Shown piece by piece: positions 7,695-57,281 of a stretch of DNA of 64,000 bases (the first letter of the stretch is position 1; each line of letters begins with the position of its first letter). The position numbers and the translations under genes were made by a program. Source of the stretch: Candidatus Bathyarchaeota archaeon (lineage in GTDB: Archaea > Thermoproteota > Bathyarchaeia > Bathyarchaeales > Bathycorpusculaceae); contig JAOZHW010000003.1 of assembly GCA_026014685.1 (NCBI GenBank), positions 35,995 through 99,994 on the forward strand. The letters are read 5' to 3'. The notes under the pieces are model-generated. The model saw only the letters and a list, made by a program, of their open reading frames with translations. It was not told the origin of the DNA and made no database searches.

Positions 7695-7752
7695 TTTTAC
7701 GGCTTTATATAAGGGAGGGGAGGTCAGCTCAGAGACGTCGCGTGGTTTACGC
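7695..7752 (+). repeat. Dispersed ~58-bp intergenic cassette, copy 1 (TATA-GGGAGGGGAGG-GAGACGTCGCGTGGTTT)
   Basis: 49/58 identical by hand alignment to the reverse complement of 19407-19464; upstream of rubrerythrin. Confidence 0.85.
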
Positions 7753-7883
7753 GTCCGCGGATACGTTTTCGTATGCGCCTTTAAATAAGGATGCCTAAAG
7801 AAAAACCACAACAGAACACACGTGTTACTCTGGTAGCTAATTGCTTATAACTTCGTGTGGCATTAAATTTCTTGGTGATTTTA

Positions 7884-8476: not shown

Positions 8477-9667
8477 TTAGGCTTTGATTTTTTGAGCAAT
8501 CTGTTGCCCAAACTCAAAGCACTTCTTCAACTCGTCAGCTGTAGGAACCCACTTTAGCTCTACACCCTGCTCCACAACATCGAAGCCGAATTCTTTAGCC
8601 ATCTTTTCCATGCCCCGCACTGCGCCACCGCCCCAACCGTAGCTGCCGAAGAAGTACCAGGTTTTGCCTTTGGGTTTTAATCCGCCGATGTAGGTTAAGA
8701 ACGCGCCAAGCGAGGGGAACATGCCGTTGTTTAGGGTTGGTGAACCGACGATTACGGCTTTTGCGTCCACGATTTCGGTGACGACATCGGTGTTGTCGGT
8801 GCAGCGAAGCTTGAGCAGCTTGACTTCGACGTCTTCGCTGGCTAAGCCATCTTCGATTGCTCTGGCCATTTTGTCGGTGCTGCCCCACATAGTATCAAAC
8901 ACGATGACTGCTTTGTTTTTCACACATTTGCCTGTGCACCAATCCATGTAGGCGTTGACGATTTTCATGGGGTCTTTGCGCCATATGACACCGTGACTTG
9001 GGCCGATGATGTCGATGGGTAACTTCATGGCGACGACTTCTTGGATTTTCTTAACGATAAGCGGCGAGAAAGGCGTGAGAATGTTCGCGTAGTAGGTGAC
9101 TGCTTCTTCCATGAGGACATGCTGGTCGACTTCGTCGTCGAAACGTCCGCTACTGGCAAAGTGTTGCCCAAACGCGTCGTTTGGTAAGAGGATTTTGTCT
9201 TCAGGGATGTAGGTGAACATGCTGTCAGGCCAGTGAAGCATCGGCGCTTCCAAGAAGGTGAGGGTTTTCTTTCCGAGTTTTATGGTGTCGCCTGACTTTA
9301 CGATTTCAACGCGCTCGAATTCTGCGCCGTAGTGTTTGATGAGTTCCTCTTTGCCTCTGGAGGTTGAGTAGATTTTGGCTTGAGGCGCAAGTTTGGCGAT
9401 TATTGGCAGACTGCTTGAGTGATCCATCTCCACGTGGTTTACGATGATGTAGTCAAGTTTGTCAAGGTTCGTGTGTTCTTTGATGTGTTCGACGAGTTCG
9501 TTGGCGAACGGAAGCTTTACCGTGTCAACGAGCGCGGTTTTTTCGTCAGAAACTAAGTAGGCGTTGTAGGTGGTGCCGCGGCTGGTGATGTATCCGTGGA
9601 AGTCACGTATGTTCCAGTCGACGACGCCAACCCAGTTAACTCCGTCTTTGAGGGTTACTTTGGTCAT
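8477..9667 (-). CDS. fprA: Flavodiiron protein (FprA family)
   Basis: GTTYNAYL, NHVEMDHS, HWPDSM, DAFGQH, PSHG, flavodoxin domain TMWGST; start MTKV at 9667. Confidence 0.95.
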   Translation of the reverse strand: MTKVTLKDGVNWVGVVDWNIRDFHGYITSRGTTYNAYLVSDEKTALVDTVKLPFANELVEHIKEHTNLDKLDYIIVNHVEMDHSSSLPIIAKLAPQAKIYSTSRGKEELIKHYGAEFERVEIVKSGDTIKLGKKTLTFLEAPMLHWPDSMFTYIPEDKILLPNDAFGQHFASSGRFDDEVDQHVLMEEAVTYYANILTPFSPLIVKKIQEVVAMKLPIDIIGPSHGVIWRKDPMKIVNAYMDWCTGKCVKNKAVIVFDTMWGSTDKMARAIEDGLASEDVEVKLLKLRCTDNTDVVTEIVDAKAVIVGSPTLNNGMFPSLGAFLTYIGGLKPKGKTWYFFGSYGWGGGAVRGMEKMAKEFGFDVVEQGVELKWVPTADELKKCFEFGQQIAQKIKA

Positions 9668-17091: not shown

Positions 17092-17148
17092 TTTTTCTAT
17101 ATAATGGAGAGGGGGTCAACGGTAGAGCAGCAGCGTGGTTCCCGCTGC
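17092..17148 (+). repeat. Dispersed cassette, degenerate copy 4
   Basis: CTATATAATGGAGAGGGGGTC...AGAGCAGCAGCGTGGTTCCCGCTGC; hairpin GCAGCG-TGGTTCC-CGCTGC at 17130-17148. Confidence 0.5.
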
Positions 17149-19323: not shown

Positions 19324-19406
19324 CGAATTCACCAAACAGCGGTTTAGTTTTAGTGTTAGGTTACGTTGTTTATTTACTTTTACCGACATCTCAAAATGCG
19401 TTGCAG

Positions 19407-19464
19407 GCGAAAACCACGCGACGTCTCAGCGTCTACCTCCCCTCCCTTATTTAAAGACGGAAAA
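19407..19464 (-). repeat. Dispersed cassette, copy 2
   Basis: Reverse complement TTTTCCGTCTTTAAATAAGGGAGGGGAGGTAGACGCTGAGACGTCGCGTGGTTTTCGC; upstream of the RPN1-like gene. Confidence 0.85.
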
Positions 19465-19521: not shown

Positions 19522-19902
19522 CTATTTTTCGCGGCAGAAGAAGCATTTTTCTGCCCAGTCTTTAGGCATTTCCTGCTGGCATTTGGGGCACATCAAACCC
19601 AGTTCGCGGATGGTTGTGCAGGTTTGGCAGAAGAGTTCTAGTACTTGGGTTTTGTTTGTTGGTTCTTTTACCAGTGTTGTAACCATTTGGTTGATTAGGT
19701 CTTTGATTTGGTGGCTGTTTTCGAGGGTTAGGTGGTTGCCGCGTTCGCGTCCGAGGTAGCGGCTGACGGCGGATTGGGATAAGCCGAGGAGGTCGGCGGT
19801 TTGTTTTTCTGTTAAGCCGTGGTTTTCTATTATGGTGCGTGCCATTATGGCTTTGACTGCTGGGAGGACTGTTTTGACTCCTACTTCGCATGGTAGTATC
19901 AA
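19522..19902 (-). CDS. Archaeal HTH transcriptional regulator (COG2522-like) with Cys-rich C-terminus
   Basis: PCE...K.VLPA.K..MA, LTEKQTADLLGLSQSAVSRYL HTH; CQTC, CPKC, CFFC. Confidence 0.8.
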   Translation of the reverse strand: MILPCEVGVKTVLPAVKAIMARTIIENHGLTEKQTADLLGLSQSAVSRYLGRERGNHLTLENSHQIKDLINQMVTTLVKEPTNKTQVLELFCQTCTTIRELGLMCPKCQQEMPKDWAEKCFFCREK

Positions 19903-19948
19903 GGTTTCACCTGAATATTGGTTATTTTGTGGGGTAACTTATTTAAGT

Positions 19949-19981
19949 ATGACGCATGTCATTAAATATGACGCGTGTCAA
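19949..19981. promoter_or_regulatory. Two tandem palindromic operators TGAC-N4-GTCA next to a TATA box
   Basis: ATGACGCATGTCAT (19949-19962) and ATGACGCGTGTCAA (19968-19981) adjacent to TTATTTAA, between divergent regulator genes. Confidence 0.7.
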
Positions 19982-20064
19982 GACGGGTTAGCAGTTGTAT
20001 TAAACACCTAAGCACACCATACCTCCACTTCCTCCCGCCTGACACCGCCAAGGAGACCAAACAA

Positions 20065-21009
20065 ATGGGTAACGTCCTCCAATCTTCCCCCGACAGCCAC
20101 AAAAAAGACCTCGCCACTATGCTAAAAACACTCGACGCTGAATGCCGCAACTGTGCACCCACCTCACCACTCGAATGCATCAACCGCTGCCAAGCCTATA
20201 AACTCAAAAATGAACTTCGCAAACTCAACCAAACAATGGAGAACCCAAACTACCTAAAAGAACTCTTCAACGTACTTAAAAACGAAACTCGGCTCCACAT
20301 ATTAAAAGCCATAGCAGACGGCAAATACTCCGTCAGCCAGCTTCAGCAGGAACTCAAAAAAACTGGCCGCACCCACAGCCAAGAAACCATAAACGAAGAG
20401 TACCTTCAACCTCTTCTGGCAGTGGGCTTAGCTAACGAATCATGCGACGAATACTACGCCACACACTTCGGCGGCCGCCTAACAGAAGTCCTCGGTGTTT
20501 TTCCTGAATTCGCTGAAGTTTTGCCTGCGCGTTCGGAGTGCCATGAAGAAACCCTGCTCAGATCGCTTTTGGCTGGCCCAAAAACCTTTGAAGAAATAGA
20601 AACCGTAATTTCCCCCAAAGTTGCATCACGCATCCTGAAACGTTTACGTGAAGTCGGGTTAATAGAAACACCCGAAGACCGAGATTACATATTCTTTTTC
20701 CGCTCCAAACGTGACCCTTCACTTGAGACTTTGTCAGAAACAGAACGAAAAGTCTACGACAGCATCCCAAATGAGGGCATATCCGCAGGTAAACTGTCCA
20801 GAGAAACTCAGCTATCCACACGTAGAATCTACAAGTACCTCAGAGGCTTAAAGGGGAAAAAACTGGTTTTCGTAAGAAAAACCCCCAAAGCATACGGCTT
20901 AACCTGCAAAGGCGAAACCTTAGCTTCAGTTCTTGAAGGTATGCATGAAATAGTTGAGGAAACGTGGAATTCTTCCCAAAAAGTCTTCCACGCCGCCGAA
21001 AACTCTTAA
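20065..21009 (+). CDS. Multi-winged-helix protein with N-terminal 4-Cys motif
   Basis: CRNC...CINRC, then repeated wHTH-like units (ETRLHILKAI, TFEEIE...ASRILKRL, ERKVYDSI...IYKYLRGL..K.LV). Confidence 0.7.
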   Translation: MGNVLQSSPDSHKKDLATMLKTLDAECRNCAPTSPLECINRCQAYKLKNELRKLNQTMENPNYLKELFNVLKNETRLHILKAIADGKYSVSQLQQELKKTGRTHSQETINEEYLQPLLAVGLANESCDEYYATHFGGRLTEVLGVFPEFAEVLPARSECHEETLLRSLLAGPKTFEEIETVISPKVASRILKRLREVGLIETPEDRDYIFFFRSKRDPSLETLSETERKVYDSIPNEGISAGKLSRETQLSTRRIYKYLRGLKGKKLVFVRKTPKAYGLTCKGETLASVLEGMHEIVEETWNSSQKVFHAAENS

Positions 21010-22058: not shown

Positions 22059-22313
22059 TCAAGCGGCTTTCCTACCCGCAAGCTTCCTTTTTGCTCTACT
22101 ATTTTTCTTTGCTCTATTGCTTCTGCTTTCACCACCTTTTCTGCCGATCTCCTGATAAAACTTGGAACCACGCTGCTCAGCCACAGTTTCGCCACCTTTC
22201 TTGCCGATGGCGCGGTAAAATTCTGGGCCTCTCTCGCTGGCAACTTTTCTTCCGCCGATTCTTCCAGCTTCTTGTCGGGTCATTTTTCTTTTTTGCTCAG
22301 TTTTCATCGCCAA
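22059..22313 (-). CDS. KGG/GsiB-like stress protein (array gene 6)
   Basis: MTRQEAGRIGG, EFYRAIGKKGG, FYQEIGRKGG; GGAGGTGA Shine-Dalgarno. Confidence 0.88.
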   Translation of the reverse strand: MAMKTEQKRKMTRQEAGRIGGRKVASERGPEFYRAIGKKGGETVAEQRGSKFYQEIGRKGGESRSNRAKKNSRAKRKLAGRKAA

Positions 22314-22367
22314 AAATTATTCACCTCCAAAGATTCAGGTCTGAAATTACTTTAACCAATTATACGT

Positions 22368-22384
22368 CTTAAGGGTATGTGGCT
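22368..22384 (-). promoter_or_regulatory. KGG-cluster promoter motif, copy 1
   Basis: Coding strand AGCCACATACCCTTAAG, about 55 nt upstream of the 22313 start. Confidence 0.55.
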
Positions 22385-22409
22385 TTCATGGGGCAACCAC
22401 AAAACAGGT

Positions 22410-22691
22410 TTATTGAATTTTGCCGATTTCTTTAGTTATATCGATGGGTGAGTTGTAGGTTTTTTCTGGCAATCTGTTGATGACGTTCATGACATCGTCG
22501 GGTGCATCCTTGGTTTGGGCGTTGTTAACTAACTTCTCTTTTTCTGCAGGGTAATGCATACCCTTTAGGTACTTCTCCACGATGGCGGGGCTTACATGTC
22601 CTGCTTTGCCGCTTCGGTCAGTGTATTGGCGTCTTGTGCCTCTGCCCTGCCCGATTCCTCTACGCCGTGTAGTGATTGTTTGTTCACTCGT
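22410..22691 (-). CDS. DUF2795-family protein, apparently starting at ACG (absent from ORF track)
   Basis: VSPAIVEKYLKGMHYPAEKEKLVNNAQTKDAPDDVMNVINRLPEKTYNSPIDITKEIG; GGAGGTGG then 6 nt then ACG-AGT-GAA, preceded by an in-frame TAA. Confidence 0.8.
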   Translation of the reverse strand, partial: TSEQTITTRRRGIGQGRGTRRQYTDRSGKAGHVSPAIVEKYLKGMHYPAEKEKLVNNAQTKDAPDDVMNVINRLPEKTYNSPIDITKEIGKIQ

Positions 22692-22755
22692 GATTTACCA
22701 CCTCCAAAAATGTTCAAATAAAATCTCAAAGTAACATGTTAATTTGAATGCTAAC

Positions 22756-22926
22756 TTATCTTTCTTCGAATTCTCTTCCTTGCTCAATGAGTCTTCTTAC
22801 TTTTTGTCCCCCTTTATGACCGATTTCACTGTAGAATTCTTCACCATGGGTTCTAGCGGTTTTTTCTCCACCCATTCGACCTGCTTCTTGTACAGTCATC
22901 TTTCCCTTCCTTCGATTTTCAGACAA
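22756..22926 (-). CDS. KGG/GsiB-like stress protein, 56 aa (array gene 5, absent from ORF track)
   Basis: LSENRRKGKMTVQEAGRMGGEKTARTHGEEFYSEIGHKGGQKVRRLIEQGREFEER; GGAGGTGA then TTG. Confidence 0.9.
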   Translation of the reverse strand: MSENRRKGKMTVQEAGRMGGEKTARTHGEEFYSEIGHKGGQKVRRLIEQGREFEER

Positions 22927-22951
22927 ACAAACTCACCTCCACAAACATCAA

Positions 22952-23131
22952 TCATCTATCTTCTTGCTCTTTTCCTTCCTTGATTAGCCGTTGAACCCTC
23001 AGTCCACCCTTATGCCCAATTTCTTCATAGAACTCCCTGCCATGCGTCTCCGCGGTCCTTCGACCTCCCTTGTGCCCTCCTAATCGCCCTGCTTCCGCCA
23101 CCGTCATAGTTCCCTTCCTTTTTTGAGCCAA
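22952..23131 (-). CDS. KGG/GsiB-like stress protein (array gene 4)
   Basis: MTVAEAGRLGG...THGREFYEEIGHKGG; GGAGGTGA-5nt-TTG. Confidence 0.9.
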   Translation of the reverse strand: MAQKRKGTMTVAEAGRLGGHKGGRRTAETHGREFYEEIGHKGGLRVQRLIKEGKEQEDR

Positions 23132-23194
23132 CAATTTCACCTCCACTAAAACAAGTCACCCACAAAGGGTTCCCTGAACTGGTTTGACCTCTAC

Positions 23195-23446
23195 TTATCC
23201 TTCTTCGTACTGTTTGCCTTCTTGGATTAGTCGGCGGACTCTTTGTCCTCCTCTGTGTCCTGCTTCTTCTAGGCTGGTTTTGCCTCTTGCTTCAGGTGTA
23301 CCCTCATGCTGTTTGGCCCGTTCGGAGCCGCCTTTGCTGCCGATTTCACTGTAGAATTCAGGGCCGTGAGTTTGAGCCGTTTTTTCACCACCTAAACGAC
23401 CTGCTTCTTCTACAGTCATTTTTCCTTTTCTTCTGTCTGCGCTCAA
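23195..23446 (-). CDS. KGG/GsiB-like stress protein (array gene 3)
   Basis: MTVEEAGRLGG..THGPEFYSEIGSKGG..EEAGHRGG; GGAGGTGA-5nt-TTG. Confidence 0.9.
   Translation of the reverse strand: MSADRRKGKMTVEEAGRLGGEKTAQTHGPEFYSEIGSKGGSERAKQHEGTPEARGKTSLEEAGHRGGQRVRRLIQEGKQYEEG
23241..23366. repeat. 126-bp perfect direct repeat, copy A
   Basis: Base-for-base identical to 23914-24039. Confidence 0.95.
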
Positions 23447-23511
23447 ACATTTCACCTCCAAAAAAGTCGTACGGTAGCTTTCTACTCAATGACCTAGCTT
23501 AGAACAAGCTT

Positions 23512-23528
23512 CTTAAACGTATGTGGCT
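23512..23528 (-). promoter_or_regulatory. KGG-cluster promoter motif, copy 2
   Basis: Coding strand AGCCACATACGTTTAAG, about 66 nt upstream of the 23446 start. Confidence 0.55.
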
Positions 23529-23618
23529 GTCCATAAACAGCAACAGCCAACAATACAAGCTAGCCTTAGAGATACACCTACATTACAAAAAAATAACCGA
23601 TTTTTAGATTGCTTTAGT

Positions 23619-23807
23619 TTATTCTTTTTCGCGGGCTTTACCCTGCTCCACAAGTTTGCGGACACGTTGCCCTCCTTTTGGTCCGCCAATCCTTCCGCCT
23701 TTACGTCCAATTTCACTGTAGAATTCTTCGCCATGCGTCTGCGCGGTTTTTAGTCCTCCGCGGCGTCCAGCCTCTTCAACAGTCATTTTTCCACGTTTTT
23801 CCTCCAA
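23619..23807 (-). CDS. KGG/GsiB-like stress protein (array gene 2)
   Basis: MTVEEAGRRGG..THGEEFYSEIGRKGG; GGAGGTGA-5nt-TTG. Confidence 0.9.
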   Translation of the reverse strand: MEEKRGKMTVEEAGRRGGLKTAQTHGEEFYSEIGRKGGRIGGPKGGQRVRKLVEQGKAREKE

Positions 23808-23864
23808 AAATGTCACCTCCCCTAAACTATCGACCTAAAAACAGAGCCTTCAAAACAGGGCTGC

Positions 23865-24188
23865 TTATTCTCTTCCTTCCCGTTCCTTCCCCGCTTGAAT
23901 CAGTCGGCGAACCCTTTGTCCTCCTCTGTGTCCTGCTTCTTCTAGGCTGGTTTTGCCTCTTGCTTCAGGTGTACCCTCATGCTGTTTGGCCCGTTCGGAG
24001 CCGCCTTTGCTGCCGATTTCACTGTAGAATTCAGGGCCGCGTTCTGCTGAGACTTTTTCGCCGCCTTTGCGTCCGATTTCTTCGTAGAATTCGCGTCCGT
24101 GTGTGGCTGCGGTTTTTTGTCCGCCTTTCCTTCCTGCTTCGGCAACGGTCATTTTGCCCTTTCTGGTTTCTTCTGTTCGTGTACTCAA
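23865..24188 (-). CDS. KGG/GsiB-like stress protein (array gene 1)
   Basis: Four (K/R)GG units; GGAGGTGA-5nt-TTG. Confidence 0.9.
   Translation of the reverse strand: MSTRTEETRKGKMTVAEAGRKGGQKTAATHGREFYEEIGRKGGEKVSAERGPEFYSEIGSKGGSERAKQHEGTPEARGKTSLEEAGHRGGQRVRRLIQAGKEREGRE
23914..24039. repeat. 126-bp perfect direct repeat, copy B
   Basis: Identical to 23241-23366. Confidence 0.95.
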
Positions 24189-24247
24189 AAAATTCACCTC
24201 CTACTAAACGATGGAAAAGCTAACAAGATATTTGCCGAATAACCGCT

Positions 24248-45975: not shown

Positions 45976-46013
45976 GGCTTTATTTAAAGGGAGGAGGTCT
46001 TGGTAGAGCAACA
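45976..46013 (+). repeat. Dispersed cassette, partial copy 5
   Basis: GGCTTTATTTAAAGGGAGGAGGTCTTGGTAGAGCAACA, 16 nt after the tRNA-Gly CCA; shares GGTAGAGCA with copy 4. Confidence 0.45.
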
Positions 46014-46133
46014 AAGAATACTTGTTTACATTCGGTATTGTTTGAAGAGACCGTTTAACAGTCGCAAAGCCAACTTTGAGGGAGCGAAAAGGTGAAATGT
46101 CACAGTGAATAATACAGAGGCAGGTGAAATTTG

Positions 46134-47574: not shown

Positions 47575-47645
47575 GCCTCTGTAGTCTTCTGCTTTTCATA
47601 TAAAATTTTTCCCCAATCACTATAGAGAATCAGGTTAAGCTCTTT

Positions 47646-47698
47646 GAAATCACGCGACGTCTCTGCGCAGAGGTCCCCTCCCTTATTTAAAGGGTAAA
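47646..47698 (-). repeat. Dispersed cassette, copy 3
   Basis: Reverse complement CTTTAAATAAGGGAGGGGACCTCTGCGCAGAGACGTCGCGTGATTTC, 40/47 identical to copy 1; just past the initiator tRNA 3' end, upstream of the cyclophilin. Confidence 0.85.
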
Positions 47699-47724: not shown

Positions 47725-47803
47725 TGGTAGCGGGGAATAGATTTGAACTATTGATCTCTGGGTTATGAGCCCAGCGGGTTGATCCTGGCTACCCCACCCC
47801 GCT
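47725..47803 (-). tRNA. Initiator tRNA-Met(CAT)
   Basis: A1-U72 pair (AGCGGGG/CCCCGCT), CTGGG-CTCATAA-CCCAG with three G-C pairs, CCA encoded. Confidence 0.96.
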
Positions 47804-48605: not shown

Positions 48606-48845
48606 GTGCGCGATGGGATGACACAAACTGAAAACCTGCAAGTAAGCGGTATGGATTCAAAATTCTCCAAAATAGCCTTAACCCTTTTGACTGTTCTGTT
48701 GCTCTTTTTAGGTCCAACATACGTTCCGTACCTATTGACTAGCGTGGGCTTAGAATACTTTGCTTCCATCGGGTTGGGCTTTGTGTTCTTTGTCGTTGGC
48801 TTAGTTATGCTGGTTTATTTGATCCGCAAAAAAGTCATAACCTAA
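48606..48845 (+). CDS. Small 2-TM membrane protein
   Basis: Two hydrophobic helices around GPTY; immediately after PAC2. Confidence 0.7.
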   Translation: MRDGMTQTENLQVSGMDSKFSKIALTLLTVLLLFLGPTYVPYLLTSVGLEYFASIGLGFVFFVVGLVMLVYLIRKKVIT

Positions 48846-51006: not shown

Positions 51007-51339
51007 GGTGCTAATTTATTTAAGGTTTGACGCTTATTTTGTTTTTCCCTAATTGAAACTTTTCTGTATTTAATTCATTGATTATTTGGTTTACGCACAT
51101 TAAGTGAGTTAGGGCATACTAAACTGCCTTTGAAAAACGTAAAATTTTCCTCAGAATTCAGCGTGTGTTGCCTTATCATTTAATGCTTAACTATTTTTGT
51201 AAGGTCGGCGTTTGTTCATTAAAAAATATGTCACATCGCTTATAGTAATTGTTGGTTTTTGGGAGTCAATGTCTGCTTAGCGTTTCTTTTTTGTCCTGTC
51301 AGTGGTCGGTTGGAGGATTTGGAGGATTATTTAACTTTC

Positions 51340-51354
51340 CTCACGATAGGTGAG
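51340..51354. promoter_or_regulatory. Palindromic operator, copy b
   Basis: Ends 6 nt before TTATAA (51361), upstream of the 51409 start. Confidence 0.85.
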
Positions 51355-51408
51355 TGAGTCTTATAACTGCTTTTCGTTAACTTGCATGAATACAAAGGAG
51401 AAATAAAA

Positions 51409-54102
51409 ATGCAAAATGAAAATCAATCTGCAAAAAAGAAAATATACTTTTCAATCGCAGCTCTTCTAATGCTGTCAATGGCTATTCCATTGACTACCCT
51501 ACAAACAGCTAGTGCTCACACACCAGCATGGCAAATCGTTTCATATGCATACATTTCTGCAGCTCCAAGCCCAGTTGGCGTAGGCCAAGAAGTCTACGTA
51601 TTCGTATGGGTTGACACACCCTTCGCAGGCGCATTAGTAACAAACGACATTCGACGGCACAACTATAAACTTGTAATCACAGACCCAGACGGCCAAAACT
51701 CAACTCAAACTTGGGCTAGAGTTGAAGACACCACAGGTGTCCAAGCATACTCATTCACACCAAACAAAGTCGGAAACTACACATTGTCATTCTACTATCC
51801 AGGTGAAAAATACGTCTGGAACACCGTTAACACTCCAGGACTTTCAGCAGCAAACGCTCTCTTCGAAAACGACACATTCCTCCCAGCTTCAGCAATAAGA
51901 ACCCTCGAAGTAACCGAAGAACAAGTACCACCACCTTCAAGCGGCGCTCCACTTCCAACTGAATACTGGACACGACCTATAAACGGCCAAAACAGTAACT
52001 GGTACGTAATTTCCTCTAACTGGCTAAACGCCCCCTACATCCGCTCAGGCGCTACTTCAACTGGCGGTGCAGGATACGGCAGATTCCAAAAAGACGGCGC
52101 AGGCCCAGAAACATCCCACATAATGTGGACTAAACCCATACAATGGGGCGGTGTCGTCGGCGGAACCAACACCATGAACTTAGGTGAAGGCTACTACACA
52201 GGCAGCTCCTACAACCCAAGATTCGCAAACGCAATCATCATGCACGGAACTCTCTTCTACCAAGAGCCATGGGGCAACTCAGGCGGAGGCGGCGACTACG
52301 TTTCAGTAGACCTGCTAACAGGTAAAGAGAACTGGCGCATAAATACAACCGCTACAGGCGTAAACCTAACACCAAGCTTTGGCTACCTATACGGCTTTGA
52401 AGACGGCAACCAGCATGGTGTATTACCAAACGGTTTACTCATCGCATCCACAACAGCTTACACTGGTCTTGGCACAGTTTGGAGAGCATATGATGCCCGA
52501 ACAGGTGTACTAACAAACTTCAACCTAACCAACGTTCCCTCAGGCTCAGCAGCATCAGCCACACTGGCAGCTAACTCCGCAAACGGTGCATCAGCAGCAG
52601 GTCCAAGAGGCGAATACCTAATCTACTCATTAACCAACCTCGGCACCACAGCAAACCCAAGCTACTATCTAATGCAGTGGAACTCTTCCAAGTATCATCA
52701 ACTCGCAGCAGGCCAAATCGGCGCAGGCAACTGGTATCCATCTTCAGCAAACCCAGGATTCAACGCAACCGATGTCCGTATGTACGACTGGAATGTATCC
52801 CTGCCAACTGTTAAAGGGCAAGGTTGGACGATCTTTAGAGACGCTATCGTCGGTGATCGTATACTCCTCGTCCAAGGTAGCATGGGAACAGGTCCAAGAA
52901 CAGAAGGCTTCGGCGCAAACATAACTGCAGTAAGCGTTAACCCAGACAGCAAAGGCCAAATCCTCTGGACAAAGTACTACGCACCAGCTCCTGGAAACGT
53001 AACTAGAGCAATCATAGCAGTCGACGCAGAAGCAGGCACATTTGTCACAGAAGACAAAGAAACCCTACAACTAAACGGTTTCAGTCTCGCCAACGGAAAC
53101 CACGTTTGGACAGCAGAAACTCCAGTCGTTGAATGGGATACTCTTCGAAGAGACACCCTTAGCGCGTATGGTAAACTATACGCTGCAGGCTACGACGGCA
53201 TAGTTTACTGCTATGACGACGCAACAGGCAAATTACTATGGACTTATGGCAACGGCGGTCCAGGTAACTCCACTTTCGCAGGCTTAGACACAGTCTACGG
53301 ACACTACCCAGTATTCATCGACGTCATCGCAGACGGCAAAGTCTACATCGGAACAACCGAGCACTCACCCGACCAACCACTCTACAAAGGCTCAATATAC
53401 GCATGCATGAACGCAACCACCGGCGAAGAAATCTGGACCCTAACAGGTATGGGCTCCGGTATGTACGTCGGACAAAACGACCTCGTCGCAGACGGCTACT
53501 TCGTATTCCTAAACATCTACGACATGCAGATCTACACACTCGGCAAAGGTCCAAGTAAACTAACCGTTGAAGCACCTCTCGCCGCAGTAACTGAAGGTCA
53601 AAGCATAGTCATCCGCGGAACCATAACCGACATCTCAGCTGGCACAAAACAGAACGAGCAAGCAGCTAGATTCCCCAACGGCGTTCCATGTGTCTCTGAC
53701 TCAAGCATGCAAGGTTGGATGGAATACGTCTACATGCAGCAAGCATGCCCAACAGACGTAACAGGCGTCCAAATCAACCTCGCAGTCTTAGACGCTAACG
53801 GCAACTACCGAAACATCGGCACAACCACAAGTGACGGAAGCGGAACCTACAGCTACCAATGGAAACCAGACATCCCGGGCAAATACGTAGTAGTTGCAAC
53901 CTTTGCAGGCACAAACGCATACTATGGTTCATCAGCCCAAACTGCTTTTGCAGTTGACGAAGCCCCAGCAACTCCAACTCCACAAGCCACACAACCTCCA
54001 TCAGCAGCTGACCTCTACATCCTCCCCGGCATTGCAGGCATAATCGTCACCATTATCTTGGTCGGCGCAGCCATAATACTCCTGCAAAGAAAACGCCCAT
54101 AA
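51409..54102 (+). CDS. Large surface protein: Ig-like + PQQ-like beta-propeller + Ig-like + C-terminal anchor (paralog 1)
   Basis: Signal peptide, repeated D..TG...W motifs, Pro/Thr linker, TM, RKRP; AAGGAG Shine-Dalgarno before ATG 51409. Confidence 0.85.
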   Translation: MQNENQSAKKKIYFSIAALLMLSMAIPLTTLQTASAHTPAWQIVSYAYISAAPSPVGVGQEVYVFVWVDTPFAGALVTNDIRRHNYKLVITDPDGQNSTQTWARVEDTTGVQAYSFTPNKVGNYTLSFYYPGEKYVWNTVNTPGLSAANALFENDTFLPASAIRTLEVTEEQVPPPSSGAPLPTEYWTRPINGQNSNWYVISSNWLNAPYIRSGATSTGGAGYGRFQKDGAGPETSHIMWTKPIQWGGVVGGTNTMNLGEGYYTGSSYNPRFANAIIMHGTLFYQEPWGNSGGGGDYVSVDLLTGKENWRINTTATGVNLTPSFGYLYGFEDGNQHGVLPNGLLIASTTAYTGLGTVWRAYDARTGVLTNFNLTNVPSGSAASATLAANSANGASAAGPRGEYLIYSLTNLGTTANPSYYLMQWNSSKYHQLAAGQIGAGNWYPSSANPGFNATDVRMYDWNVSLPTVKGQGWTIFRDAIVGDRILLVQGSMGTGPRTEGFGANITAVSVNPDSKGQILWTKYYAPAPGNVTRAIIAVDAEAGTFVTEDKETLQLNGFSLANGNHVWTAETPVVEWDTLRRDTLSAYGKLYAAGYDGIVYCYDDATGKLLWTYGNGGPGNSTFAGLDTVYGHYPVFIDVIADGKVYIGTTEHSPDQPLYKGSIYACMNATTGEEIWTLTGMGSGMYVGQNDLVADGYFVFLNIYDMQIYTLGKGPSKLTVEAPLAAVTEGQSIVIRGTITDISAGTKQNEQAARFPNGVPCVSDSSMQGWMEYVYMQQACPTDVTGVQINLAVLDANGNYRNIGTTTSDGSGTYSYQWKPDIPGKYVVVATFAGTNAYYGSSAQTAFAVDEAPATPTPQATQPPSAADLYILPGIAGIIVTIILVGAAIILLQRKRP

Positions 54103-54230
54103 ATCAAGAAAAGACTAAAATCCTCTCTCTTTCTTCTTTTTTTAGTTGCAAGCAGCCCAAAAATGAATTTTAGGGCATTCTGCAGGGTTAATGTGGTTTT
54201 TTAGGGTTTTTTGTGGCTTCTTTAACTTTG

Positions 54231-54245
54231 CTCACGATAGGTGAG
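54231..54245. promoter_or_regulatory. Palindromic operator, copy c
   Basis: Ends 6 nt before TTATTA (54252), the same spacing as copy b. Confidence 0.85.
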
Positions 54246-54305
54246 TGAATCTTATTAGCCGTTAAGCGCCTCTAAGGTAGTCACAAAATAGGAGAAAGAA
54301 AAAAC

Positions 54306-57017
54306 ATGAAAACTCAAAAAACATTAGCCTTAATTGCGTTTGTACTAATCGCAAGCATGGCCATAACAGCAATTTCAGCGCCATTCGCAAAAGCACAAAC
54401 TTCAGGTCAAATGAAATCCTTTGCATACCTCATCGTCGAACCCAATCCAGTCGGCGTAGGCCAAACAACCTACGTCGCCATGATGGTTGATGTGCCACTA
54501 CCTGGATCGTCCGAAGCAAACGACATCAGAAGACATAACTACAAACTAACCATTACCGCACCAGACGGTAAAGTAACGACAAAAACATGGGCAGTAGTTG
54601 CAGATACTACAGGTGTCCAGTCAACTGCATTCACACCCGATCAAGTAGGTAACTACACCTTCTTCTTCGAATACCCAAACCAAAACTACACATGGACCAC
54701 AGGAACCTACCTTGTTAACACAGCATACACTGGCGTTATCTTCCTAGGTTGCAACGCAACAGCAACTCTCACTGTCCAAGAAGATCCAGTTCCATACACC
54801 GCAAACTCACCTCTTCCAACTGAATACTGGACAAGACCCATCTACGGCGAAGACTCAAACTGGTACGTAGTCGGTTCACATTGGCTCGGCAGTGGCAGTT
54901 CCTATACTGCAGCTAGCAGCAACTACTTTGGTTCATTCCAACAAGGCGGTATGAACCTCTGGCAGCAAGGTGGAACCGGCCCAGATAGTCCACACATTGT
55001 CTGGACAACTCCACTTGAAGACGGAGGCGTCGTCGGCGGAATCAACACTGGTATCGAGGGAGCAACCTTCTACTCAGGCGGTTCATATGAAGGCAGATTC
55101 CAAAACGCACTCATAGTCAACGGCAGATTATACTACAAAGCACCCCTAAGCGACCAAGTCAGCGTTACTGCGACTGGCGGAGGCGCTTACATATGCAGAG
55201 ACTTACGTACAGGCGAAATCATCTGGACAAATGACAACATAAACCCAACATTCGGCGAACTCTACTGCTATGAATCACCCAACCAACACGGAGTAATTCC
55301 AAACGGCTACCTATGGCAAGCAGTAACCCCTTCAGGGTCAGTAACAAACCAAACATGGATTGCTTGGGACGCTCTAACCGGTAAATGGCTATTTAACATC
55401 ACCGACGTTCCAGTAACCTCAGCAACCACAACCCCCAACATGTCAAGTGCAATCGCTTACACAAATCAAGGTGAAATTGTCAAATACATCCTAAGTTACA
55501 ACCGAACAGCAAAGACTGGTTGGTTGGCGCTTTGGAATTGGACTTGTGCCCAGGGAGTACCACCAACTACGACCGGTACTGGTGGTGTTCAAGCAGGCAT
55601 GAATGGAACAGGCACCAACTTCCTACAATTCCGACCCGTCGGCAAAGTCATCAATGCAAGCACCGCATACTCATGGAACGTCACCATAACAGCAGACTTA
55701 ACCGGTACGCTTTCATCACAAGTTCCGACAATCCAGTATGTACTACCAGGAGATATACTGCTTGGAACAACGCCATCTTTAGCACCAGGTGTTCTATCCT
55801 TAAGAGGTACAGTTGACCCGTACCAAGTATGGACACTAAGCTTAGCTGAAGACAACAAAGGCGCACTACTCTGGAAGAAATCATACAATGCACCATCAGG
55901 TAACATGACACTCAACCTCGGCCCAATCGATCCAGTAAACCGCGTTTGGACAACAACCACAGCAGAAGACATGCAATACCAAGGCTACAGTCTAGCTAAC
56001 GGAAACAAACTATGGGAAACCGACATGAAAGTCCGACCAATGCAATTCTTCAGCAGCGGCTCAGGTGCAGGTCAAAGATGTGTAACCGCATACGGAAACC
56101 TCTATACACAAGGCTTCGGCGGCGAAATCTTCTGCATCGACACAAACACAGGCAAAGTCGTCTGGAAATATAACAACACAAGCGGCGGCGTCGACACATC
56201 TTGGGGCTTAATCCCAACATTCATCGGCGTAATCGCTGACGGAAAAGTCTACGCCTTCAACAACGAACACTCACCAAACAGCCCGCTATACAAAGGCTAC
56301 AGCATCTATTGCATCAACGCAACTACTGGCGAAGAAATCTACAAGATGCTCTCTTGGTCAGGCCAAACAGGCGGCCAAGGTCTAAGCACACAGATTCTAG
56401 CAGACGGAACATTAGTCTACTACAACTACTACGACAACCAACTCTACGCAATCGCTAAAGGTCCAAGCCAAACCACAGTAACAGCAGGACCGAAAGTAAC
56501 CGAGCTAGGTCAAAAAGTCCTAGTTGAAGGTACAGTAATAGACATCTCAGCAGGCACAAAACAAACCGAGCAAGCAGCAAGATTCCCAAGCGGTGTTCCA
56601 GCAGTCTCTGACGCAAGCCAAGCAGCCTGGATGGAATACGTCTATATGGACCAGCCACGTCCAACAGACGCTACAGGTGTTCCAGTGACAGTTAGCGTAG
56701 TCGACCCCAACGGCAACTACTACGTTGTCGGCACAGCTACAAGTGACTCCAACGGCGCTTTCAAGGTTGTATTCACTCCAGAAGTACCAGGAGTATACAC
56801 CGTGATGGCAAACTTTGCAGGCTCCGCTTCATACTATGGTTCACATGCAACAACAGCCGTCTACGTTGACGAAGCACACGCAACAGCAACTCCACAAGCA
56901 ACAAAAGAACCAACAGCAGCTGACTTATACTTCGTACCCGCAATTGCAGGGCTATTCGTCTTAGTCATCATAGTACTAGCATTGCTAGTAGTTTTGATGA
57001 TGAAAAAACGTCCATAA
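54306..57017 (+). CDS. Large surface beta-propeller protein (paralog 2)
   Basis: Shares PVGVGQ, DIRRHNYKL.IT.PDG, LPTEYWTRPI, EHSP, ISAGTKQ.EQAARFP with paralog 1. Confidence 0.85.
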   Translation: MKTQKTLALIAFVLIASMAITAISAPFAKAQTSGQMKSFAYLIVEPNPVGVGQTTYVAMMVDVPLPGSSEANDIRRHNYKLTITAPDGKVTTKTWAVVADTTGVQSTAFTPDQVGNYTFFFEYPNQNYTWTTGTYLVNTAYTGVIFLGCNATATLTVQEDPVPYTANSPLPTEYWTRPIYGEDSNWYVVGSHWLGSGSSYTAASSNYFGSFQQGGMNLWQQGGTGPDSPHIVWTTPLEDGGVVGGINTGIEGATFYSGGSYEGRFQNALIVNGRLYYKAPLSDQVSVTATGGGAYICRDLRTGEIIWTNDNINPTFGELYCYESPNQHGVIPNGYLWQAVTPSGSVTNQTWIAWDALTGKWLFNITDVPVTSATTTPNMSSAIAYTNQGEIVKYILSYNRTAKTGWLALWNWTCAQGVPPTTTGTGGVQAGMNGTGTNFLQFRPVGKVINASTAYSWNVTITADLTGTLSSQVPTIQYVLPGDILLGTTPSLAPGVLSLRGTVDPYQVWTLSLAEDNKGALLWKKSYNAPSGNMTLNLGPIDPVNRVWTTTTAEDMQYQGYSLANGNKLWETDMKVRPMQFFSSGSGAGQRCVTAYGNLYTQGFGGEIFCIDTNTGKVVWKYNNTSGGVDTSWGLIPTFIGVIADGKVYAFNNEHSPNSPLYKGYSIYCINATTGEEIYKMLSWSGQTGGQGLSTQILADGTLVYYNYYDNQLYAIAKGPSQTTVTAGPKVTELGQKVLVEGTVIDISAGTKQTEQAARFPSGVPAVSDASQAAWMEYVYMDQPRPTDATGVPVTVSVVDPNGNYYVVGTATSDSNGAFKVVFTPEVPGVYTVMANFAGSASYYGSHATTAVYVDEAHATATPQATKEPTAADLYFVPAIAGLFVLVIIVLALLVVLMMKKRP

Positions 57018-57281
57018 GGTGAAAACGTTGAATCAATCAACTTTCCCTCCTTTTCTTTGTTTGAATCTGGCTTTAGAAGCTGGGGCTGAGAGGGTTTCTG
57101 GTTTAAATTCACGATGTTGCGATCGTGGTTTTTCATTTTTCTTTTCTCCTTAAGAAGAATTATGACCCAGAAACCCCAGCAAACCCCCAAAAAACTGCTT
57201 TTATCTTGTTTCGAGGGTTTAGTTAGAATACACTTCCAGAATACATAAGGCATATAGGTTATAGCTAAAAGAATAATTTCT

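Follow-up and report, generated by a model that had tools for sequence, protein, structure and literature searches.

The window analysed here, a stretch of 64,000 nucleotides from a contig of a Candidatus Bathyarchaeota archaeon (JAOZHW010000003.1), contains an intergenic sequence of about 58 bp which recurs beside unrelated genes and opens with a TATA-like box. An earlier note had described five copies and had read them as a portable promoter with a structured 5' RNA, or else as a small repeated RNA or MITE-like element. The question is therefore what kind of element this is, and whether its conservation reflects transcription from the element, an RNA product or the binding of a protein.

Copies in the window

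Three strong copies are present, at 7703-7748 (+), 19411-19456 (-) and 47647-47692 (-). The 13-mer GAGACGTCGCGTG and the 12-mer TAAGGGAGGGGA each have exactly three exact occurrences in the window, one per strong copy, with a chance expectation for exact 13-mers of about 0.002 in 128 kb; elsewhere in the window no match to either with fewer than 1-3 mismatches was found, and TTTAWATAAGG occurs only inside the cassettes. A repeat search of the window aligned 7695-7752 with 19407-19464 (58 nt, 84% identity) and 7703-7748 with 47647-47692 (46 nt, 87% identity). This agrees with the identity of about 84-85% claimed for these copies; the exact 13-mer and 12-mer lie where they had been placed, and the described layout of TTTAWATA, GGGAGGGGAGG and GAGACGTCGCGTGGTT is correct. 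Of two further copies called degenerate, the one at 17092 is a significant member of a sister type (type B, E=4e-9) and the one at 45976 is a weak match only (E=0.03, with a twin at the related locus L064). The copies and their parts are listed below.

7695-7752 (+): copy 1, module A (type A), from motif matches, repeat search and family alignment
7695-7702 (+): copy 1, T-rich edge
7703-7712 (+): copy 1, TATA box CTTTATATAA
7713-7724 (+): copy 1, G-box GGGAGGGGAGGT
7725-7731 (+): copy 1, variable N7
7732-7744 (+): copy 1, box 2 GAGACGTCGCGTG, predicted start at G7732
7745-7749 (+): copy 1, GTTTA
7757-7778 (+): copy 1, hairpin of the long form, GCGGATACG-TTTT-CGTATGCGC; an internal G.G mismatch is conserved
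7779-7825 (+): copy 1, second promoter-like module (P2) of type-B architecture: CTTTAAATAAGG, an A-rich stretch and ACAACAGAAC
17096-17148 (+): copy 4, type B, from a profile search (nhmmer)
17096-17105 (+): copy 4, TATA box TTCTATATAA, followed by the G-box TGGAGAGGGGGTC and, at 17124-17138, by AGAGCAGCAGCGTGG
17130-17148 (+): copy 4, local hairpin GCAGCG/CGCTGC
19411-19464 (-): copy 2, short type A; TATA box from 19456, G-box from 19446, box 2 at 19427-19415
45978-46016 (+): copy 5, weak type B (CTTTATTTAAAGGGAGGAGGTC...AGAGCAACAAAG); the E-value is that of the identical L064 copy over 1.1 Mb
47647-47692 (-): copy 3, short type A with the G-box variant GGGAGGGGACCT; box 2 at 47663-47651

Copy 1 is a long form of the cassette, preceded by the CdhD gene, and its P2 module precedes the rubrerythrin start (7884/7885) by about 100 nt. 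Copy 4 faces the 3' end of a convergent ferredoxin gene. Copy 3 lies 43 nt beyond the 3' end of tRNA-Met, and copy 5 about 19 nt beyond that of tRNA-Gly, with a 66-aa ORF about 120 nt downstream of it. The flanking genes had been guessed correctly as rubrerythrin, cyclophilin (two genes) and a ribophorin-I-like gene, the last encoding a 622-aa protein whose relatives have Ribophorin_I matches; the Pfam check covered ten window proteins only, and all other neighbours mentioned below were identified by eye. An Rfam scan of the window gave no match besides its three tRNA genes.

The window contains further repeats of other kinds. An array of 4-6 diverged direct repeats at 22250-24220 (-), spaced about 366 nt (D1, D2, D4, D6, D8, D12), resembles tandem paralogous small genes with Shine-Dalgarno regions. 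At 51300-57020, tandem paralogous genes of about 905 aa have their upstream regions duplicated too, with a spacing of 2912 nt (families D3, D5, D9, D13). Between the divergent genes 19522-19902 (-) and 19975-21009 (+), the region 19903-19974 holds a near-palindromic TATA CTTAAATAAG common to both, flanked on each side by ATGACGC(A/G)TGTCAT-like repeats, which may be the operator of the adjacent HTH protein.

A repeat family confined to one clade of Bathyarchaeia

The search for further copies in Bathyarchaeia which the earlier note had proposed was successful. An exact-pattern scan with one genome per species gave 14 matches in one MAG (JAMDCQ01, Candidatus Bathyarchaeota), one copy each in two further Bathyarchaeia, one in a MAG labelled as Methanocella and one chance match; a looser pattern scan of metagenome contigs gave 105 stretches. 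Once GC-rich chance matches were removed, the scan matches amounted to 84 distinct copies at 61 independent loci, all within a narrow Bathyarchaeia clade. The cassette of about 58 bp occupies intergenic positions at dozens of unrelated sites, its hosts being a few soil and sediment Bathyarchaeia, and the loci L034, L071 and L064 are near-identical to window copies 1, 2 and 3, respectively. In Rfam the element gave nothing at gathering score and nothing at E<=10. The repeat family is real and, judged by Rfam and the literature searched, previously undescribed.

On the contig from the Methanocella-labelled MAG (JBLNCY010000018.1, Methanocella sp.), a perfect type A cassette is accompanied by a type-B-like one. 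The proteins encoded there group with those of the Bathyarchaeia loci, and the contig was probably mis-binned rather than acquired by transfer. No viral copies were found in IMG/VR with two patterns, and a viral origin was rejected on these zero matches.

The type A consensus reads ttt.CTTTAWATAA-GGGAGGGGAGGT-N7-GAGACGTCGCGTG-RTTYC. Among the 80 standard copies the TATA box CTTTAWATAA is near-invariant (76-80 copies, or 79-80 where it is scored as a core-promoter element), and those G-box positions that were not forced by the search pattern are kept in 67-79. The G at the predicted start is found in all 80, preceded by T in 61. Near-invariant without being forced by the pattern are additionally the C and TTTA of the TATA box, AGGT, the opening G of box 2 and the TT after it, and the N7 between the conserved blocks is free to vary. 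Three copies (L003, L014 and L016) miss the TATA box and keep both other boxes. The profile search revealed the sister type B, TTCTATATATAA-(T/G)GGAG(A/G)GG..-AGAGCAGCAGCGTG, as well as hybrid cassettes with GAGAGGTGGCGTG or GAGAGATGGCGTG as box 2.

The copies fall into two discrete size classes. The short form ends 2-14 nt past box 2; the long form extends about 60-100 nt more and consists of a linker, the hairpin GCGGATACG-N4-CGTATGCGC and P2, a type-B-like module of TATA, G-run and initiator. The hairpin-plus-P2 part almost never occurs without an A or B module ahead, and modules also stand in tandem, as B-A in L008 and L078 and as A-B in L123 and L125. One hairpin-plus-P2-like stretch in the window at about 48690-48735 (-) (GGTACGGAACGTATG..CCTAAAAAGAGCAACAGAAC) has no type A or B module before it and faces the 3' end of a PAC2 gene.

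The sequence of the N7 bears on how the copies arose. AGACGCT occupies this position at 18 unrelated loci, and orthologous pairs differ at 2-5 of the 7 positions, far above their flanks (L035 vs L077: AGACGCT/CAGCTTT); the variable positions are linked to one another. An N7 that is shared between unrelated loci and divergent at orthologous ones points to duplicative spread or ectopic conversion and not to convergence.

At orthologous loci the cassette forms an island of conservation between unalignable flanks. When orthologues of the ribophorin-I-like gene were collected by protein and not by cassette pattern, one species had an intact type A and a decayed type B cassette, another a type A with two changes in box 2 and a decayed B, and the JAMDCQ MAG a single hybrid cassette; in the pattern-independent orthologues L123, L124 and L129 box 2 is decayed or replaced. 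The RtcB locus carries a type A cassette in L115 and none in the window or L130, and in L129, with a 98% identical RtcB, TATA and G-box are kept next to a different box 2. At the PhoU locus two species (L007, L022) have an antisense cassette just past the stop codon, and the more distant L131 and L132 have no cassette. The filled and unfilled RtcB and PhoU loci come from genomes too diverged for clean empty sites to be recognised. Judged from these loci, the cassette is gained and long kept, and it also decays or gets replaced.

No hallmarks of a transposon accompany this turnover. The left end CTTTAWATAAGGGAGGGG and the right end GCGTGRTTYC of the consensus, read directly, are not complementary, the sole inverted repeat being the internal long-form hairpin. 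The longest word shared by both flanks averages 4.76 nt, vs 4.59 +/- 0.13 in mismatched controls, so there is no sign of a target-site duplication. In the absence of terminal inverted repeats and target-site duplications the cassette is not a strict MITE, and the proposal of a MITE-like element is not borne out. That the two TATA boxes of the long form could be a target duplication is likewise unsupported: a comparison of about 11 copies by eye gave no clear association between their left and right A/T variants.

Another dispersed element, about 125 nt long, ..CCACAACCAG..(~65 nt)..C(T/G)GGTTGTTGTTGTGTATAG..TTTTC.GCAACAACAACTATAGAAAAA, was noticed at related loci. It is not present in the window, shows long-range and local complementarity and often adjoins type A cassettes; it also occurs in a 2.9-Mb Bathyarchaeia genome without the cassette, and Rfam gave no match (best E=0.84). 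Its positions are:

L012, 2660-2676 (-)
L014, 7051-7067 (-)
L020, 5998-6014 (+)
L037, 8956-8972 (-)
L123, 2693-2709 (+) and 5138-5154 (-)
L127, 9523-9539 (+) and 12151-12167 (-)

Promoter-like anatomy and neighbouring genes

Archaeal core promoters combine an AT-rich TATA box of 8 bp with a pyrimidine-purine step about 21-25 bp downstream and a purine/A-rich BRE directly upstream. In the cassette, a TATA box is followed by such a step at a fixed distance: 20-21 nt separate TATA and T|G, with identical spacing in 81 of the 84 copies, and in type B and P2 17-20 nt separate TATA from AGAG/GAGA. This constancy in types A, B and P2 is what promoter geometry demands, and we count it for a promoter. 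The conserved block extends from about -36 to +14 relative to the predicted-start G, which is the region covered by the pre-initiation complex. A native-type BRE was not found, and the short form is not regularly followed by a transcription unit in the same orientation. Native promoters of these genomes have a G-run/A-run, GGGGAAAAC, GGGAGAAC or GGTAAAAG, ahead of TATA (e.g., GGGGAAAAC-TTTGATTAG and GGGAGAAC-TTTTAAAC); the cassette has TTTGTTC, TGCGGC or TACGGC at this place. Moreover, its stretch between TATA and start is G/C-rich, not A/T-rich.

Two native-type promoters were located between a window copy and the gene that it faces:

19367-19384 (-): native promoter GGTAAAAGTAAATAAACA of the ribophorin-I-like gene, downstream of copy 2 and outside the repeat
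47597-47614 (-): native-type BRE/TATA GGGGAAAAATTTTATATGA, about 25 nt upstream of the cyclophilin ATG and downstream of copy 3

The promoter GGTAAAAGTAAATAAACA is kept in all seven loci read, namely the window and its six orthologues L123-L128, down to about 50% protein identity; three of these orthologues, of about 50% identity, have no cassette. As this conserved native promoter lies between copy 2 and the gene, the cassette of copy 2 is an upstream add-on. The longer stretch GGTAAAAGTAAATAAACA..GACCTAAC (window 19340-19390 (-), L123-L128) is conserved at the nucleotide level at about 50% protein identity and is probably the native BRE/TATA together with the leader; the ORF probably starts further downstream than the called position 19389, since the relatives are called about 19 aa shorter.

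The orientation of the short copies is random. Based on gene calls that are crude but conservative, their upstream and downstream neighbours are opposite/opposite in 10 cases, opposite/same in 15, same/opposite in 12 and same/same in 10. With each independent locus represented once and neighbours restricted to 150 aa or more, 19 large neighbours were co-oriented and 17 convergent. About a quarter of the short copies lie between convergent genes, and many aim directly at a large convergent gene whose stop codon is 8-75 nt away (HdrA-like, acyl-CoA-synthetase-like, RtcB and PhoU-like, from translations read by eye). Behind the long form, a co-oriented ORF of 60 aa or more was called in 23 of 32 cases, and these genes are often small: S8e, Sm-like and zinc-ribbon by eye, and rubrerythrin by Pfam. 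Neither the reading nor the clustering of the ORF translations revealed a theme shared by downstream or convergent genes, and no transposase-like or other gene family recurs within 3 kb of the copies.

Proximity to tRNA 3' ends, which had been pointed out for copies 3 and 5, holds for these two but is not general: only 2 of the 84 copies (window copy 3 and L074, the latter near two tRNA genes) have a tRNA gene within 400 nt, and window copy 3 alone lies directly past a tRNA 3' end. We thus rejected tRNA linkage as a family feature. Since the adjacency is not general, the idea that UGGU pairs with the ACCA end of tRNA has no support. As regards these tRNA genes, in the more distant relatives L126 (~1180-1280) and L127 (~9225-9325) the tRNA-Met beside PAC2 carries about 22 extra nt at the canonical intron position, which are missing from the window tRNA-Met (47725-47803). 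In L126, the box-2-like sequence GAGAGGCACGCGTGGTTTC follows tRNA-Met without TATA or G-box.

In three soil small-RNA metatranscriptomes (X25, X26, X29) many copies of the element occur at high depth as assembled contigs (Logan). The contigs end 4-6 nt outside the repeat, as is expected of breaks in a de Bruijn graph; because their ends coincide with the repeat edges, they are uninformative on transcription starts. The abrupt contig start at L017:1360 was discarded as a start site, being downstream of the Shine-Dalgarno sequence of the gene.

What remains of the portable promoter that had been proposed is the TATA/T|G geometry and a unit that has clearly been copied to unrelated sites in several genomes. 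That each cassette is simply the promoter of the gene it faces is not supported, because 19 co-oriented stand against 17 convergent neighbours and, at copies 2 and 3, a native-type promoter intervenes. We tentatively favour, at somewhat less than an even chance, a lineage-specific dispersed repeat which is a propagated promoter cassette with putative activity. The cassette would in effect comprise a whole archaeal core promoter in about 58 bp, namely the TATA box with a G-rich block immediately behind it, 7 bp of free sequence at the expected melting site, and the initiator with the first 18 or so transcribed bases; initiation and its position are inferred from this arrangement. The unit has been copied into many unrelated intergenic sites regardless of the neighbouring genes. 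TBP would bind CTTTAWATAA, and TFB and RNA polymerase would be positioned via the G-box and not via an upstream BRE. Transcription would start at the invariant G of GAGACGTCGCGTG (window 7732, 19427 and 47663), so that every transcript would open with the same leader. A gene downstream, already owning a promoter, would receive a second one further upstream; in the long form the cassette would be joined to the hairpin and a second promoter-like module, usually ahead of small genes. Where a gene end lies downstream, antisense or orphan transcripts could arise, or the cassette could be silent. Against a promoter role speak the missing BRE, the G/C-rich stretch before the start, the random orientation, the native-type promoters past copies 2 and 3, the three copies without TATA and the decayed or replaced box 2. 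In particular, random orientation of the short copies, with a quarter of them between convergent genes, would be odd for an active strong promoter.

Protein binding, RNA products and related repeats

Several of these points would be accommodated by a repeat of the REP/BIME kind. The REP/BIME mosaics of enterobacteria consist of short extragenic units of two sister types with linker motifs, in either orientation and often at gene ends, and the cassette resembles them in all these respects. TATA plus G-box and box 2 would then dock a sequence-specific protein, candidates being a trans-acting recombinase or transposase, a chromatin protein or an insulator protein; transcription would not be the function of the cassette, and its promoter likeness would be incidental or serve only TBP binding. 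This would fit the near-random gene arrangements around copies of random orientation, neighbours without a functional theme, the absent native-type BRE, the TATA-less copies that retain both boxes and the BIME-like mosaics A-hairpin-B, B-A (L008, L078) and A-B (L123, L125), and the identity of the boxes lies well above the needs of an ordinary promoter. REP units, however, are imperfect palindromes recognised by a RAYT transposase, whereas the short cassette has neither palindrome nor dyad and no such gene, nor any other recurring candidate partner, within 3 kb. In addition, the exact TATA-initiator geometry and the free 7 bp at the melting position would be coincidence. We regard protein binding of this kind as unlikely, though it is the strongest of the alternatives.

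A small-RNA or cis-leader family, in which the functional product is an RNA starting with GAGACGUCGCGUG, would account for the autonomous orientation, as for stand-alone RNA genes, and for the conservation of the first 18 or so transcribed bases. The long form would carry the GCGGAUACG/CGUAUGCGC hairpin, and the short form would be a conserved 5' tag followed by locus-specific sequence. The RNA structure described originally was a co-varying hairpin with a TGGTTYN loop. We tested its stem in 77 distinct copies by comparing CGCG of box 2 with the four bases past the 7-nt loop: 40.9% of the cells were paired, within the 31-46% of slid-partner controls, and double changes were absent among the 77 copies, the 5' arm being the invariant box 2. 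The predicted folds of the putative leaders are ordinary (z -1.2 to +1.4). With the stem test failed as well, the structured 5' RNA of the earlier note is not supported.

The long-form hairpin GCGGAUACG-N4-CGUAUGCGC is real. In 35 copies 89.6% of its cells are paired, vs 14-67% in slid controls; the loop is free, the internal G.G mismatch is conserved and three pairs show double changes. The inner stem has three G.U pairs on the cassette strand, with seven G.U/U.G cells across all eight pairs, and no A.C was seen in it; G.U and A.C were read by eye from the alignment, as the pairing count lumps remaining mismatches as 'other'. The G.U pairs, double changes and free loop speak for an RNA. The stem hardly varies, which leaves little covariation evidence, and an imperfect DNA palindrome explains the stem equally well. 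Further arguments against an RNA product are the absence of a terminator after the element and of an Rfam match, and the fact that the sequence after the tag is local flank, common to orthologues. An RNA as the functional product therefore appears improbable.

Specific RNA and peptide readings were rejected individually. A tRNA-derived origin finds no tRNA model match in the element. C/D box sRNAs carry a C box RUGAUGA near the 5' end and a D box CUGA near the 3' end; in the copies read directly, the second GA is missing from GUGAUUC/GUGGUUU, and CUGA does not follow consistently. An ORF from the GTG of box 2 has 18 codons in the window and in L017, but its frame shifts among other copies because the linker length varies, and GGAGGT has no start codon at a distance usable for a Shine-Dalgarno sequence. 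One known RNA was encountered at a related locus, a fluoride riboswitch (crcB motif, 38.7 bits) at L035 6639-6716 (-) on a Bathyarchaeia metagenome contig.

A regulon, in which the cassette is a common promoter or operator under one transcription factor or TFB paralogue and its similarity is due to selection and not copying, is quite improbable. In its favour, four species keep the cassette at the ribophorin-I-like gene, on its promoter side, the cassette is a conservation island amid diverged flanks, and some neighbours are redox/stress genes (rubrerythrin, flavodoxins, cyclophilins). Against it, a co-oriented gene is missing at half of the short copies, the downstream genes are by eye a random housekeeping sample (S8e, proteasome alpha, LysRS, PyrB, TrpE, shikimate kinase) with nothing in common on clustering, copies 2 and 3 are each followed by a native-type promoter, and convergence cannot produce an identical N7 at 18 loci.

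The propagated promoter cassette, the reading we prefer, has a proven counterpart in design. The halovirus HF2 contains class I repeats, 58-bp intergenic sequences with experimentally proven promoter activity, in which mutation of either the TATA block or the gamma block with its mapped start abolishes activity (Russ, Pfeiffer and Dyall-Smith, 2021, PMC8707807). Both elements are archaeal, about 58 bp long and dispersed in several intergenic copies, both have a TATA block and a second conserved block with more variable bases between, and in both the positions are conserved among related genomes. The HF2 repeats, however, are viral, stand in front of gene modules in consistent orientation and have a recognisable BRE as well as measured activity and starts, whereas the cassette is chromosomal and randomly oriented, without a native BRE or a viral copy found, and its promoter activity is predicted only. 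As a likeness of design, with no sequence homology claimed, the HF2 class I repeats are the closest proven analogue. Putative mobile promoters have also been documented in prokaryotes (Nijveen, Matus-Garcia and van Passel, 2012, PMC3575422). Like these, the cassette is a highly similar promoter-like unit beside non-homologous genes which has spread within and between related genomes, and it shares with both systems a near-identical unit with a conserved TATA block and a putative start-site block. Such mobile promoters and promoter-bearing repeats (Correia, ERIC, REPIN) can create transcription or redirect it. The cassette has neither the terminal inverted repeats and target duplications of Correia and MITE-type elements nor the palindromic structure of REPINs; bacterial promoter repeats are of the sigma-70 type and the cassette is of the archaeal TATA type. 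The family is thus a variant of already known promoter-like dispersed repeats.

A bolder version of the promoter cassette, which we consider rather improbable, would be a self-propagating start unit that both spreads and homogenises among intergenic sites without transposon hallmarks. The G-box would replace the BRE, possibly with a dedicated TFB paralogue, and orphan and antisense transcripts would share an 18-nt 5' tag which a dedicated factor could read.

Bathyarchaeia are abundant and barely cultured, and their promoter architecture and mobile DNA have hardly been explored. If active, the cassette would be a natural, compact and portable archaeal promoter with an unusual BRE-less G-box design, useful as a genetic part and as a tool for studying how the orientation of TFB is set. 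It would also represent promoter propagation in cellular archaeal chromosomes, for which the virus HF2 is the closest archaeal case in the searched literature. If it does not fire, the family would be an archaeal counterpart of the protein-binding repeats of the REP/BIME type. Either way, it is a clade marker and a source of breaks in metagenome assemblies.
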